Assembly: GCA_963808235.1 (NCBI GenBank)
Contig: CAWEEQ010000004.1
Location: forward strand, 3,264,001-3,328,000
Source: an uncultured delta proteobacterium
GTDB taxonomy: Bacteria > Desulfobacterota > Binatia > Binatales > Binataceae
Length of the DNA stretch: 64,000 nt
Direction of reading: 5' to 3'
This document shows, piece by piece, positions 26,702 through 31,827 of this stretch. A program made the translations under genes and the position numbers. The notes beneath the pieces were generated by a model. That model saw only the letters and a program-made list of their open reading frames with translations, did not search any database and was not told where the DNA came from. Every line of letters starts with the position of its first letter. The first letter of the stretch is position 1.

Positions 26702-27304
26702 CTAGTTCCTCTTTTTTTCCTTGTCGTTCGGATTTTGAGCTTGTGGAGCTTGCTGGGCGATTTCGCCCGGCCCTATTACGTCGAAGTCTTCCTTGGGTTC
26801 CATCAATGATTCGTCCAGATGCGCGGGTAATTCGTAGATCAGATCGATTGTCATGCGCGACTTATCCGCGTCGCTCGGATACAGCATGATGCTTCCCGGA
26901 CGCCCGTTGTAATGAAAGTCGCACGACCAGGTCTTGCGCGCCGACATGATGAGCGACGAGGTTATCCGAAAGTCATTCTTCTTGAGCGCGTCCTTATAAT
27001 AGCCGACCATCTGCGGGAAATCGCCCTGCGCGCTTAGCAATATCTCGCGCATCGCACCCTTGGGTTTGCGTACATGCTCGACGACCGCGCCCGGATACAT
27101 CGGCATCTGCTTGTACAGGTCCGGCGGCAGCACTTTGCTCGGTTCATCGGGCGCCGTCATCGAGGACTGCACGGGCGGAGGCGCGGTGATTGGCGACGGA
27201 GGAGTTTTGCAGGCGGCGAGTCCAGCGAACAAGGCTGCGGTGAGCAGTCCTTTACCCGGGAGCGACCGTGCAAGTCTTGAAATGAACAAGTCGGGCGGAT
27301 TCAC
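26702..27304 (-). CDS. Hypothetical lipoprotein (start uncertain)
   Basis: Lipobox LAAC, Pro-rich linker, MPMYPGAVV motif. Confidence 0.65.
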   Translation of the reverse strand: MNPPDLFISRLARSLPGKGLLTAALFAGLAACKTPPSPITAPPPVQSSMTAPDEPSKVLPPDLYKQMPMYPGAVVEHVRKPKGAMREILLSAQGDFPQMVGYYKDALKKNDFRITSSLIMSARKTWSCDFHYNGRPGSIMLYPSDADKSRMTIDLIYELPAHLDESLMEPKEDFDVIGPGEIAQQAPQAQNPNDKEKKRN

Positions 27305-27388
27305 CGTCTTATTAATTGAAAGAAGGCCGTTATTTTTCAAAACGTTAATCGACAAAAAAATAATGACCGCATCGCGGTCACGATCTGG

Positions 27389-27426
27389 CAAGTTCTGGAT
27401 AGACTTGCAAGTTCTGGATAGACTTG
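27389..27426. repeat. Perfect 19-bp tandem duplication
   Basis: CAAGTTCTGGATAGACTTG twice. Confidence 0.9.
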
Positions 27427-27880: not shown

Positions 27881-28522
27881 ATGCAAAGCAATTTTGGAAT
27901 TTTGGGAATGATCCAAGAGGGTTACTACGCTACGTACCCCCTGCTGTTCATTTCGGTCATCTGCCTCGCGATCATTTTCGAGCGCGTGTGGGCGCTATGG
28001 GGCGTCGGCCCGAAGACCGCGAAGCTGGCCGACTCGCTGGTGCCGCAACTCCGCCAGGGCAAGTTCAACGAGGCGTTGCAGGCAACCCAAGCGCGGGGCA
28101 CCGCTGCCGAGCGCATCTATCACACCCTGATCTCGGGATCGCAGACCATGGACCGCGACCATCTGCTCGAGCTCGACGACGAGCGTCGCTACCAGGAAGG
28201 GCTCGAGTTCAAGCGTTACATCTGGGTGCTGGCGACCGCCGGCGCGTCGGCGCCGTTCATCGGGCTGTTCGGCACCGTCGTCGGAATCCTGGTCGCATTC
28301 CAATCGATGGCGATCATGGGCACCGGCGGTTTCTCGGTCGTCGCGGCCGGTATTTCGGCGGCGCTGATCTCGACCGCGCTCGGACTTGCCGTCGCGATCG
28401 TCGCGGTCATATTCTACAACTACTTCTCGGTTAAGGTTGAGAACATCAACGCCATGCAGCACATCAACGATGATCGCCTGATCGACGCCGCGCTGCAGGG
28501 GAGACAGGCGCGTGGCAATTAG
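27881..28522 (+). CDS. MotA/TolQ/ExbB proton-channel protein
   Basis: IIFER, APFIGLFGTVVGI, VAAGISAALISTALGLAVAI; three TM helices. Confidence 0.93.
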   Translation: MQSNFGILGMIQEGYYATYPLLFISVICLAIIFERVWALWGVGPKTAKLADSLVPQLRQGKFNEALQATQARGTAAERIYHTLISGSQTMDRDHLLELDDERRYQEGLEFKRYIWVLATAGASAPFIGLFGTVVGILVAFQSMAIMGTGGFSVVAAGISAALISTALGLAVAIVAVIFYNYFSVKVENINAMQHINDDRLIDAALQGRQARGN

Positions 28523-28964
28523 CGGACCTCATACCGGCGGAGGCGGCGTCTTCGACAGCATTAACATCACGCCGCTCACCGACATCTTCCTGGTCCTCCT
28601 GATCATCTTCATGGTGACGACTTCCGTCACCATCGAGTCTGCGGCGCACGTCGACCTGCCCAACGCGACCAACACTGCGCCCGAGAACAAGGGCGTCATC
28701 GTCACCTACACGACCCAGCACGAGCTGTTCGTGAACTCCAAGGACGTGCCCGAGCGCGAACTGCGCTCCAGCCTGAGCGAGGCGCTGGGCAAAGTCGATG
28801 CGAAGATCGTCGTGTTCCAGGGCGATCGCAAAGTGCTGCTCGGCGACATGGTCCGGATTCTGAACATCGCCAAGGCCGCCGGCGCAACGCAAATAGCGAT
28901 CGCGGCCAAGCGGGCCACGGGTGCGCAGATGGCCAATTCCTCGGGTGCAGGTGGAGGACAATGA
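28512..28964 (+). CDS. ExbD/TolR family protein (copy 1)
   Basis: INITPLTDIFLVLLIIFMV with the conserved TM Asp; VDLP; FQGD; overlaps the exbB stop. Confidence 0.92.
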   Translation: MAISGPHTGGGGVFDSINITPLTDIFLVLLIIFMVTTSVTIESAAHVDLPNATNTAPENKGVIVTYTTQHELFVNSKDVPERELRSSLSEALGKVDAKIVVFQGDRKVLLGDMVRILNIAKAAGATQIAIAAKRATGAQMANSSGAGGGQ

Positions 28965-29019
28965 TCGGGTCGCGGTACGCTCGAGACCTGAAAGTCACCG
29001 CCCTTAGAGGTGTTTGCTC

Positions 29020-29478
29020 ATGGCAATGACTTCAAATCAAGGCGGCGGGGTTTTCTCCGACATCAACATCACCCCGTTGACCGATATTTTTCTCGTCCTG
29101 CTGATCATCTTCATGGTGACCACCGCAGTGACGATCGAATCCGCCGCGCACGTCGATCTGCCCAAGGCCGAGCAAGCGGCCCCGACCGACAAACCCAAGG
29201 GCATCATCGTGACTTACACCGCGGATCATCAGATCTACGTGAACGACAAGATCGTAACCGAACCGGAGCTGGTGCCCCAGTTGCACGCGGCGCTACAGAA
29301 TTCGACCGACAAGATCGTAGTATTCCAGGGTGACCCCAAGGTCATACTTGGAGACATGGTGCGCATCCTGGATCTCGCCAAGTCGGCGGGTGCGGAAGCG
29401 ATCGCAATCGCAGTGTCGTCACTTCCTCCCGGTGGCGGTGGCGCGCCGGCCGGTGGAGCGCCCGGCGGCGGAGTATAG
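29020..29478 (+). CDS. ExbD/TolR family protein (copy 2)
   Basis: INITPLTDIFLVLLIIFMV; IDLP-type VDLPKA; FQGD. Confidence 0.92.
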   Translation: MAMTSNQGGGVFSDINITPLTDIFLVLLIIFMVTTAVTIESAAHVDLPKAEQAAPTDKPKGIIVTYTADHQIYVNDKIVTEPELVPQLHAALQNSTDKIVVFQGDPKVILGDMVRILDLAKSAGAEAIAIAVSSLPPGGGGAPAGGAPGGGV

Positions 29479-29564
29479 GAGTTTGATTTTCGAACCAAAT
29501 GGAATGAACGAGGATCTCGGCTCGGTCGCGGCAATCGCGGCTTAGGCAGGGAGCGCGCGCAAAT

Positions 29565-30791
29565 ATGATCCCAGTAATTGTAGTTTTACTTGTCCTCTCG
29601 ACCTTCGTGGTCGCCTTCATCTTTTACCGCATAATCGGCAAGCGCGAGCGTTTAGCCGAGGCCAATCGCGACGACGACGAAGCTGATGCGACCCGCCTGC
29701 AATCGATGAAAGACGCGCTGGGCCTGCTGATTGGGCCCTTCCCGCTCTCAGTCGCTCTGCACGTTATCGCCCTCCTGTTCCTGATCATCACGGTCCACGA
29801 ACAGCGCGGACGCGAACTGATCATGGTGAACCTGGAAGCAGGCGGCGGCGGAGGCGGGGGCAACGAGATGCAGGATCTCGATATGCCTGAAGTGCCGATG
29901 CCCGACACGGCGCCGCAGCAGATGGAGCAGCCGACCGCGGTCGACACCTCGCAAGCGGTGGGCCTGGCCAATGATTACGTGCGCGCGGCCGGCGGCGGCG
30001 GAATCGGAATCGGGCGCGGCGGCGGCATGGGCTCGGGCTACGGACACGGAATCGGCTCAGGGTTCGGCGGCTTTATAGGCGAACTGCGGCGCAAGGGACT
30101 CGACGTGGTGCTGGTCATCGACGGGACCGGCTCGATGAACCTGATCATCGACGATGTGAAAGCCAAGATGGCGCAACTGGTCCAGTCGATCCATCGGCTG
30201 GTGCCGATCGCGCGCATCGGGATCATCGTGTTCGGTGGCAAGGGCGAGAAGATGAGAATCCAGCCGCTGACGCTGTCACCGCAGAAGCTTGGCGACTTTT
30301 TGAACAGCATCCAGGCGATGGGCGGCGGCGAATGGGAAGAGGATACCTACGGCGCGTGCGAGCAGGCGATGGAGCGGATGGACTGGAAGCCGTACGCCAA
30401 GAAGGTGGTGGTGCTGGTCGGCGACTCGCCACCGCACAAAGAGGACTTCGGTCCGCTGCTCGCAATGATCCGCAAGTTCAAGGACAACAACGGCACCTTC
30501 AACACGGTTGACGTAGCGGCGGAAGAGCATGAACGGTTCGAGCGCGAGTTCTGGCTGAAGGTGCATCGCGAAGAGCCGCCCAAGATCTCGCCGCTGCCGG
30601 AGTTCTACCGGCAGACCCAGGCGGCGTACAAAGTGCTCGCGAGCGCCGGTGGCGGCTCGATGAAATCGCTGACCAAGGACGCGAAAATCAACCAGCAGGT
30701 GCTGATCCTCGCCTTCGGCGAACAATGGCAATCGCAAGTCTCCGCCTTCGGCCGAGGCCTCGGCGGCGGCTCGGGTGGCGGCGGCGAGTAA
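29565..30791 (+). CDS. Membrane-anchored vWA-domain protein with TonB/TolA-type S-x3-H anchor
   Basis: Two hydrophobic segments, the second LSVALHVIALLFL; Pro/Gly-rich spacer; vWA motifs LDVVLVIDGTGSM, GGGEWEE, VLVGDSPPH. Confidence 0.85.
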   Translation: MIPVIVVLLVLSTFVVAFIFYRIIGKRERLAEANRDDDEADATRLQSMKDALGLLIGPFPLSVALHVIALLFLIITVHEQRGRELIMVNLEAGGGGGGGNEMQDLDMPEVPMPDTAPQQMEQPTAVDTSQAVGLANDYVRAAGGGGIGIGRGGGMGSGYGHGIGSGFGGFIGELRRKGLDVVLVIDGTGSMNLIIDDVKAKMAQLVQSIHRLVPIARIGIIVFGGKGEKMRIQPLTLSPQKLGDFLNSIQAMGGGEWEEDTYGACEQAMERMDWKPYAKKVVVLVGDSPPHKEDFGPLLAMIRKFKDNNGTFNTVDVAAEEHERFEREFWLKVHREEPPKISPLPEFYRQTQAAYKVLASAGGGSMKSLTKDAKINQQVLILAFGEQWQSQVSAFGRGLGGGSGGGGE

Positions 30792-30844
30792 AAGTAAATA
30801 TATGGGACCGGCCCGTCGTCCAGTATGATCAGGGCCAGGACGCC

Positions 30845-31438
30845 ATGAAAAACTTCAGGATACTTAGCGCGGTCGCCGTTGCGGCCGCGCTTTTCTTTTC
30901 GCAAGGCGTAACCCATGCGCTTGCGATGGATCTGCGGCATGCACGCGCGCAGAAGGATCTCACGCCTGCGCTTCAGCAGTCGCTCGAGGACAAACTCTCC
31001 GACGTGGCCGAGCCTTACTTCAACGAACAGGACGAGGCGAAAACCAAGGGCGGGAAGTACCTCGACTTGCAGCAAAAGTTCGAATACCTGCCGACCTACG
31101 GACCGCGCGGGCAGCTGACGGTGAGCTGCAAGATGGGCGGCGTCGAGTATGACCTCTCGAAGAAAGACGCGAAGGGCGCCACCTCCAAGGGCCTCGCAAC
31201 CGGCGTGTTGAAATACCTGGTCTTCACGTACGCACTGGAAGGTGGAAAATGGGTCCAGGTCGCGAAGCCGAAGTGGGAATCGCAGGATCTCGGCGTCGCG
31301 GGCGCCAAGCAGATGAGAGAGAGCCTCGCACGCGGCGAACAGCGCAAAGCCGCGATGCAAAAATCGATGCAGACTCATCAGGCCGCGTCCGCAGCCGCCG
31401 CTGCCGCTCAGAAAGCCGCCGACAGATCGAGCCAGTAA
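30845..31438 (+). CDS. Secreted hypothetical protein
   Basis: Sec signal MKNFRILSAVAVAAALFF...ALA; AGGA RBS; GC-type codon usage. Confidence 0.75.
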   Translation: MKNFRILSAVAVAAALFFSQGVTHALAMDLRHARAQKDLTPALQQSLEDKLSDVAEPYFNEQDEAKTKGGKYLDLQQKFEYLPTYGPRGQLTVSCKMGGVEYDLSKKDAKGATSKGLATGVLKYLVFTYALEGGKWVQVAKPKWESQDLGVAGAKQMRESLARGEQRKAAMQKSMQTHQAASAAAAAAQKAADRSSQ

Positions 31439-31470: not shown

Positions 31471-31827
31471 GAGACCCTTGCATAACCGGCTGTTGGAGTT
31501 GGCGCTACAGCGCTCGCGCGCTCTTTTTGTGTCATCCTGACCGAAGCGAGCAACGCGAGCGTAGCGCAACGACCTCGGACCGCTTCGCGCAATCGAAGCC
31601 GGTTCCGGTTTCGAGTCACCGCGTCCAATCCATCCGTCGTCCTGAAAGGAAGCTTCTGGAGTCGAAGGACCTCCGCGAAACGACGCTTTCTTACTGACGC
31701 GCTCTTTTTTTGTGTCATTCTGAGCGCAGCGAAGAAACCCGAATCTTTCTCGGAGCAAAACACTTCGACTTCACTTAGGCTTGCGAAGCCGACCTGCTCC
31801 GAATTCAATATACAGTTATGCAAAGGG
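31471..31827. mobile_element. MITE-like/IS-remnant element with imperfect terminal inverted repeats and internal REP-like units
   Basis: Left GAGACCCTTGCATAAC versus right GTTATGCAAAGGG; three internal GTC(A/G)T(C/T)CTGA units; no transposase ORF. Confidence 0.5.

Follow-up and report, generated by a model that had tools for sequence, protein, structure and literature searches.

The locus described here raises the question of what a proton-driven motor of the TolQR/ExbBD type acts upon when the gene behind its subunits encodes neither TonB nor TolA. These two proteins were for long the sole known arms reaching from such motors to the outer envelope. The operon in question occupies positions 27881-31438 of a 64,000-nucleotide stretch, referred to here as the window, of the genome of an uncultured delta proteobacterium of the lineage Binatia (GCA_963808235.1, contig CAWEEQ010000004.1, abbreviated C4, positions 3,264,001 to 3,328,000). 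Judged by the names of close homologues, this soil bacterium belongs to Candidatus Binatus / Binataceae. It consists of exbB, two exbD genes (exbD1 and exbD2), a gene (vwa) for a 408-residue protein with a von Willebrand factor type A (vWA) domain, and a gene (ds) for a secreted protein, DS. Analysis confirms that the locus exists, is conserved and suggests a mechanism. The probable reading of exbB-exbD1-exbD2-vwa-ds is a proton motor of the TolQR/ExbBD type with a vWA force transducer of the SHLS type. The possibility of a third arm was opened not by this locus but by a paper of 2025 in which such transducers were predicted in silico ('Origin and Evolution of Bacterial Periplasmic Force Transducers', Mol Biol Evol 2025;42(6):msaf138, PMC12204202). 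The Binatia operon adds to a class already in print and is new in its lineage, the main text of that paper containing no occurrence of either 'Binat' or 'Desulfobacterota'.

The five closely spaced open reading frames (ORFs) that the initial annotation had described as a co-oriented operon are all present on the plus strand at the positions given in Table 1, and Pfam agrees with the assignment of the first four. Its quoted strings, LSVALHVIALLFL, GGGGIGIGRGGGMGSG, DGTGS and GDSPPH, are likewise all found in the 408-residue translation. The first three proteins are closest to TolQ/ExbB and TolR/ExbD and lie under all NCBIfam equivalog cut-offs; the ExbB-like protein, for instance, scores 100.7 bits against TolQ and 76.6 bits against ExbB, for which the cut-offs are 221 and 206. 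They are motor subunits of the TolQ/ExbB-TolR/ExbD family, not assignable to Ton or Tol by score.

Homologues of the 408-residue protein are numerous: a word-index search gives 781, and at E<=0.001 there are 3432 representative clusters, with planctomycete and Bacteroidota-type relatives among them. An alignment of 41 full-length relatives (24-56% identity) was used both for column counts and for an AlphaFold2 (AF2) model with a mean predicted local distance difference test score (pLDDT) of 81.1. The model has helices at residues 2-33 and 58-81 and an alpha/beta domain at about 166-400. Within the second helix Ser62 and His66 are invariant (41/41), and position 73, seven residues beyond the His, is most commonly Leu (21/41) and is hydrophobic in the others. 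When Ser-x3-His in an uncharged helix was sought by regular expression, it was found in 120/120 close homologues, in 75/85 representatives of at least 330 residues (two of the ten misses retain the His without the Ser) and in 84/87 vWA ORFs of the fetched loci, where the misses are one Ala-x3-His and two ORFs cut by contig ends. The background, taken from the other ORFs of at least 330 residues in the same loci, was 14/586. The Ser-x3-His helix is therefore present in the vWA family far above chance, and its conservation in homologues, on which the initial annotation depended, is confirmed.

The vWA domain itself is modelled with a pLDDT of 93-98 across most of residues 170-370. The top Foldseek matches of the 166-400 domain are all vWA folds, namely BatB (3ibs), Rpn10, TEM8/CMG2, integrin I domains and ITIH1, with E values of about 4e-9 to 1e-7. 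In the columns corresponding to a metal ion-dependent adhesion site (MIDAS), D186 is found in 41/41 relatives, T188 in 40/41, S190 in 39/41, Asp or Glu at position 256 in 36/41 and E259 in 41/41, and the GGG[D/E]xxE loop of the head is nearly invariant. Judged from these columns, the head has a predicted MIDAS-type first loop, D-x-T-x-S, whose surroundings are particular to the family. Between helix and head, residues 92-165 form a linker with a pLDDT of 42-63, a short helix at 128-143 excepted, which aligns poorly and varies in length across the family. In the short stretch that follows the helix, a candidate 'motor box', position 88 is Val or Ile in 22/41 relatives and position 90 is Leu, Ile or Val in 38/41. 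The 408-residue protein has no TonB_C (PF03544, PF13103) match at E<=0.1, and BLASTP against the genome's own TonB gave low-complexity Gly matches only. The description of the protein as a TonB/TolA-type anchor joined to a vWA head is thus borne out by Pfam, AF2 and Foldseek.

An extra N-terminal helix precedes the Ser/His helix. It is present in relatives at 51-57% identity (P0122, P0123, P0125 and P0126) and is specific to Binatus-type orthologues, its place being taken in paralogues by an anti-sigma domain. The loop between the two helices contains seven Lys or Arg residues, against two in the 23 residues after the second helix, and in paralogues and distant relatives cytoplasmic domains of the anti-sigma or FHA type stand directly ahead of the same Ser/His helix. 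On both grounds the vWA head is predicted to be periplasmic, as had been proposed, and not cytoplasmic. The start at 29565 is preferred to one at Met48, which was also considered and would yield a single-pass protein, since a Shine-Dalgarno-like GGGAG lies 11 nt ahead of the ATG at 29565, no such motif lies ahead of Met48, and the first helix is conserved in relatives.

Linkage of the vWA gene to exbB and exbD was surveyed in the window's own phylum and in one gammaproteobacterial subfamily. Among 151 genomes of the phylum, 19 have a match at E<=1e-20, and nine of these matches are full-length: that of the present genome (G000), those of all four same-class genomes sampled and those of four genomes of one further family. 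In 7/7 fetched phylum loci the vWA gene has an ExbB gene and either one or two ExbD genes as neighbours, in the varying orders ExbB-ExbD-vWA, vWA-ExbB-ExbD and vWA-ExbB-ExbD-ExbD. For the Gammaproteobacteria one genome per species was scanned with a subfamily alignment, and the best 80 of the 201 relatives found (Porticoccaceae, Cellvibrionales, Haliea and other metagenome-assembled genomes, MAGs) were surveyed with ExbB and ExbD profiles built from first-round matches in the same loci. The order ExbB-ExbD-ExbD-vWA was found in 63/80 loci, in one of which ExbB is split into two ORFs, and a further locus (1/80) reads ExbD-ExbD-vWA at a contig end. Closer to home, the whole operon and the divergent gene upstream of it are intact in 2/2 sibling loci examined. 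Because the linkage survives changes of gene order in the phylum and recurs in the Gammaproteobacteria, it speaks strongly for a functional tie between the vWA protein and the motor; the gene neighbourhood is conserved across phyla in respect of linkage, even where the order changes. As a separate observation, nine gammaproteobacterial loci (L069, L071, L072, L075, L083, L089, L090, L101 and L109) retain Ser-x3-His and a downstream partner of about 745-760 residues and have no exbB/exbD within 2.5 kb; a secreted protein of 650-673 residues is encoded upstream of the vWA gene in L069, L072 and L101.

According to PMC12204202, the predicted transducers combine an SHLS helix (Ser-x3-His-x6-Leu-x3-Ser), a domain II of about 100 residues and a vWA C-terminal domain; they occur in Proteobacteria, Planctomycetes, Verrucomicrobia, Bacteroidetes and Rhodothermaeota, and in AlphaFold3 models the helix sits on the motor with the conserved His as its contact. 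A literature search brought up no other paper on this class. The family typified by that of Tichowtungia aerotolerans is matched by the 408-residue protein in its Ser/His helix, disordered linker, vWA head and position behind one tolQ-like and two tolR-like genes. The Ser, His and Leu of the helix, the linker, the vWA head and the synteny of the class are all found here, and the last Ser of the helix and the tetratricopeptide repeat (TPR) gene are lacking. Unlike the published family, the Binatus operon has DS instead of a TPR protein, a recent ExbD duplicate and an extra N-terminal helix, and it coexists with canonical TonB and TolA. The second vWA family of the same paper, with a TolR-like transpore helix bearing a proton-binding Asp, no SHLS motif and no tolR/exbD at the locus, is not matched, the window helix having Ser and His and no Asp, and two exbD genes being present. 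The protein resembles TonB in its Ser-x3-His helix, its Pro/Gly-rich periplasmic linker, the place of its gene behind exbB-exbD and probably the kind of motor served, and differs from it in having no TonB_C domain; with a vWA/MIDAS head, the TonB box would not be the expected target. TolA shares the Ser-x3-His anchor followed by a Gly-rich stretch, as well as a motor of the same family. However, there is no TolA C-terminal domain in the 408-residue protein and no tolB or pal beside the operon, and a complete Tol-Pal cluster lies elsewhere in the genome.

From these features we infer docking, force transduction, motor sharing and the nature of the ligand as follows. The Ser62/His66 helix would dock on the outside of the ExbB pentamer, as those of TonB and TolA do, and the short hydrophobic strand after it may touch the periplasmic domains of ExbD. 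The Gly/Pro-rich linker of about 75 residues would span the periplasm, so that the vWA head could grip a periplasmic or outer-membrane ligand through its putative D-x-T-x-S metal site. Protons passing through the motor would then cause it to pull on the ligand of the head or to let it go. The same motor probably energises the orphan canonical TonB of this genome, and with it the TonB-dependent receptors.

The Myxococcus gliding motor AglR-AglQ-AglS is built from one TolQ-like and two distinct, anciently diverged TolR-like subunits that work with Glt proteins, and its system includes the vWA adhesin CglB. The initial annotation had likened the operon to this layout, with which it shares one TolQ-like and two TolR-like genes and a vWA domain in the system. 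Closer analysis of the two ExbD proteins does not bear the comparison out. ExbD1 and ExbD2 are 69% identical, both have an Asp-bearing transmembrane segment, NITPLTDIFLVLLIIFMV, and ExbD1 is 92% identical to its orthologue in the sibling genome G167. In the tree ExbD1, ExbD2 and the G167 orthologues form one clade of four rows (97/95) nested among single ExbD genes of the same class (96/98); the two gammaproteobacterial copies fall into two old clades, their placement being unsure in a tree with long branches. By this phylogeny the ExbD1/ExbD2 pair is best read as a recent, genus-level duplicate and not as an old heterologous pair. A further difference from AglRQS/CglB is that the vWA domain here is carried by an inner-membrane transducer, not by an outer-membrane lipoprotein.

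The protein encoded last in the operon, DS, had been put forward as a possible substrate of the vWA clamp. It has no Pfam or NCBIfam match, and its 259 homologues, wherever they bear a name, are hypothetical proteins of Candidatus Binatus. An AF2 model (pLDDT 82) consists of a long helix, a four-stranded sheet and a long Ala-rich C-terminal helix; it has no match in the Protein Data Bank at E<=0.001, only weak NTF2/cystatin-like and Tim44-like rows, and no Atlas match above 0.86. The gene that comes straight after the orphan tonB encodes DS2, a secreted paralogue of 177 residues (39% identity over 114 residues, E 6e-23), and 5/5 sibling genomes have exactly two members of the DS family, of which one follows tonB and the other belongs to the vWA operon. 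This pattern fits an accessory of each transducer, which could bind each head or a feature common to both, and since the twin sits behind tonB, DS is likelier to be a transducer-associated accessory than a vWA-specific substrate. In same-class and gammaproteobacterial relatives the gene behind vwa encodes a secreted protein of 728-954 residues, for which TPR matches were obtained in 7/7 tested, four of them over the Pfam cut-off. In the Binatus operon DS occupies the place of this usual TPR partner.

According to the initial annotation the motor was apparently coupled to the 408-residue protein instead of TonB or TolA, and TonB_C, a TonB-dependent receptor, tolB and pal were missing from the window. 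The latter statement is correct, as all genomic matches lie outside C4:3264001-3328000 (TonB_C at C4:2450866, 671746 and 2924597; Plug at C4:3800116). The former does not hold for the genome as a whole, which encodes TolQRA-TolB-Pal as well as TonB-dependent receptors and two TonB_C proteins that lack a motor. It contains no more than two MotA_ExbB and three ExbD matches; TolQR accounts for one set and the operon of the window for the other. At C4:~2922-2927 kb the Tol genes form a TolQ-TolR-TolA-TolB-Pal(-CpoB-like) cluster. An orphan canonical TonB of 352 residues (TonB_C 87.7 bits; C4:~2450 kb, L010:4244-5901) carries a Ser-x3-His of its own, and a 259-residue TonB_C protein is encoded directly after an 829-residue barrel resembling a TonB-dependent receptor, a Plug-domain receptor being found elsewhere in the genome. 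None of these TonB_C proteins and receptors has motor genes of its own. With so small an inventory, the only motor other than TolQR that could energise TonB would be that of the window, which is probably shared with the orphan TonB and the TonB-dependent receptors. Cross-talk of TolQR with the TonB system is known in E. coli.

Relatives of the vWA protein in the genus proved informative in another respect. Matches at E<=1e-30 occur in 22 of 24 other genomes, several of which have two or three copies (the tally includes G168 and G173, flagged as unpublished, on which no other claim rests). In 6/6 second-copy loci (L150:5271-7546 in the sibling G165, and L151, L165, L166, L167 and L168) the paralogue is an ORF of 480-534 residues, which has an N-terminal H-x3-C-x2-C, a motif of zinc-binding anti-sigma factors, followed by the same S-V-A-L-H helix, a linker and a vWA domain; from residue ~45 of the window protein onwards the identity is 86-90%. 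In all six the gene overlaps the end of an extracytoplasmic function (ECF) sigma factor gene (Sigma70_r4_2, Sigma70_ECF). On one scanned copy zf-HC2 was not called by Pfam at E<=0.01; the precomputed list for P0106 has PF13490. Distant relatives of 570-700 residues carry an N-terminal FHA domain before the Ser-x3-His helix and vWA domain, with E 5.6e-12 in the one scanned (P0223). A literature search by title and abstract found no description of a vWA/anti-sigma fusion, and neither 'anti-sigma' nor 'FHA domain' occurs in the main text of PMC12204202. These fusions hint that the family may also have a role in signalling, possibly coexisting with pulling. A third vWA paralogue, about 52% identical and with an S-I-A-I-H helix, was seen near a TPR protein of 697-698 residues in 2/6 of these loci (L150:12049-15868 and L168:6374-11876), and it adjoins the anti-sigma paralogue in L151 and L165.

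Several observations weigh against a vWA force transducer driven by this motor. The last Ser of the SHLS motif is Val at position 77 here and Ser in only 4/41 relatives. In the AF2 monomer there is no strand at residues 85-91, and the pLDDT is below 50 for residues 83-107. The MIDAS residue D287 is retained in just 31/41 relatives. The operon and its surroundings contain no TPR gene, and the genome's closest counterpart of a relative's TPR partner lies far away, with 24% identity (E 2.5e-15) and two in-frame stops; in PMC12204202 a TPR gene is a frequent co-occurrence and no requirement. That paper also states in its main text that the function of the class is not established, and reports no deletion phenotypes there. 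Adjacency of vWA gene and motor is not obligatory, for none of the six second-copy loci has exbB/exbD at the locus, nor do 16/80 gammaproteobacterial loci within 2.5 kb. Seven of the latter have less than 1.1 kb of upstream DNA and nine have 1.7-7 kb. Two MAGs each hold a linked locus and one in which no motor was detected (L099/L090 and L105/L106, L106 with only 78 nt upstream), so unlinked vWA copies can be second copies. The motor inventory, too, comes from a genome with a completeness of 92.95%, and in the sibling G167, which is 100% complete, there are three motors; the third belongs to a cluster of a TonB-dependent transporter (TBDT) with its motor, TBDT-ExbB-ExbD-TonB (L169:2765-7339). 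The receptor of that cluster is 78% identical to the 829-residue protein of the present genome (L011:4729-7952), where the receptor and TonB genes overlap and leave no space for exbB/exbD. The two loci appear orthologous, and the difference looks like a deletion of the motor. The reading of the window's motor as the only non-Tol motor of this genome depends on the lack of exbB/exbD at the orthologous locus.

Other explanations of the operon have to be set against this evidence. The anti-sigma paralogues raise a real though lesser chance that the protein is a motor-docked sensor, in which the vWA head would bind a ligand under the control of the motor or the proton-motive force and pass the event on to cytoplasmic partners. 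All six sibling second paralogues fuse the helix, linker and vWA domain to an anti-sigma-type domain encoded by a gene overlapping that of an ECF sigma factor, and longer relatives in other lineages have the FHA domain seen in P0223. However, the window protein has no cytoplasmic domain, only an additional hydrophobic helix and a 33-residue loop, and no anti-sigma paralogue was found in this genome at E<=1e-30, the motor-linked copy being the only one. Moreover, signalling and pulling are compatible, as TonB-dependent signalling needs force as well. It is also conceivable, if improbable, that the operon is the Ton motor for the orphan TonB and that the vWA protein is an ExbB/ExbD accessory in assembly, anchoring or regulation, with no ligand to pull. 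This would suit the only non-Tol motor of a genome in which two TonB_C proteins occur along with TonB-dependent receptors, and the orphan tonB and the vWA gene are both followed by DS-family members. The nearly invariant MIDAS loop and a vWA surface conserved across phyla nevertheless argue for a ligand; according to PMC12204202 the class occurs in Tichowtungia, where TolA and TonB are not discernible; and G167 keeps the operon despite its separate canonical TBDT-ExbB-ExbD-TonB cluster.

That the vWA protein is merely a Bat-like protein of the aerotolerance type beside exbBD, its Ser/His helix being an ordinary membrane anchor, is very unlikely. The closest folds do include BatB (3ibs) and the aerotolerance-related 4jdu, there is a weak NCBIfam BatB match (E 0.0029), and BatA and BatB of Bacteroides and Leptospira are likewise membrane-anchored vWA proteins. 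That match, however, to NF047506, reaches 16.8 bits against a cut-off of 350, and no MoxR, DUF58 or further Bat genes occur in the flanks. An ordinary anchor would not hold Ser and His invariant at 24% identity, nor would a chance neighbour retain exbB/exbD through changes of order; to our knowledge a Ser/His motor-docking helix does not define Bat proteins. A more elaborate version of the force-transducer reading, which we regard as speculative and rather doubtful, would have one ExbB/ExbD motor serving both the orphan TonB and the vWA arm, each with its own DS member and with the ExbD duplication as a division of labour; the class might also be a force-gated signalling module, and the sibling fusion a proton-motor-coupled anti-sigma factor.

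If the vWA protein is indeed a force transducer, TolQR/ExbBD-type motors would have a third arm with an integrin-like, metal-dependent grip, and would power more than nutrient import and the maintenance of the envelope. Within the class the Binatia locus stands out in coexisting with TonB and Tol-Pal, in having DS in place of the TPR protein and a DS twin behind tonB, and in the anti-sigma fusions of its siblings.

Table 1. Features of the operon and of the 408-residue (vWA) protein, in window coordinates
Feature	Position	Strand	Evidence or remark
ExbB/TolQ-like proton-channel subunit, 213 aa	27881..28522	+	Pfam MotA_ExbB E 3.7e-26
ExbD1, ExbD/TolR-like, 150 aa	28512..28964	+	Pfam ExbD E 6.4e-23; 11-nt overlap with exbB
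ExbD2, paralogue of ExbD1, 154 aa	29014..29478	+	Pfam ExbD E 3.7e-25
Putative vWA-headed TonB-like transducer, 408 aa	29565..30791	+	Pfam VWA_2 E 5.5e-11 (residues 181-288), VWA_4, VWA
408-aa protein: extra N-terminal hydrophobic helix, residues 2-21	29568..29627	+	Helix 2-33 in AF2 model
408-aa protein: putative motor-docking helix, residues 55-77	29727..29795	+	Ser62 29748-29750, His66 29760-29762, Leu73
408-aa protein: candidate 'motor box' strand, residues 85-91, LIMVNLE	29817..29837	+	Suggested by alternating hydrophobic pattern
408-aa protein: Gly/Pro/acidic linker, residues 92-165	29838..30059	+	Low pLDDT, variable length
408-aa protein: vWA domain, predicted periplasmic, residues 166-400	30060..30764	+	MIDAS loop D186-G-T188-G-S190 at 30120-30134
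DS, secreted, 197 aa	30845..31438	+	ORF 30725-31438, likely start 30845; signal-peptide-like N-terminus

The operon is flanked by genes for unrelated enzymes and by an amino-acid permease gene on the opposite strand. The divergent gene upstream (window 26702-27391, minus strand) encodes a protein of 229 residues whose N-terminus (…GLAAC…) resembles that of a lipoprotein and for which Pfam gives no match; it has the same position beside the operon in 2/2 sibling loci and was not found in the seven phylum-level loci. An Rfam scan gave no match in the window, and a promoter and terminator scan of the window gave nothing exceeding shuffled sequence that bears on the structure of the operon. A 35-nt direct repeat, 86% identical, lies at window 31515-31549 and 31698-31732, inside the 530 nt that separate the operon from the convergent permease gene.

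In three soil metatranscriptome runs from three studies the share of the stretch's sampled words is 0.05-0.10. RNA-library contigs, which indicate presence only and for which uncovered parts, including most of the DS gene, are uninformative, map to exbB, exbD1 and the vWA gene; they are short and mostly 90-95% alike, and so derive from relatives. One contig of 241 nt matches 29529-29769 exactly and crosses the start at 29565.

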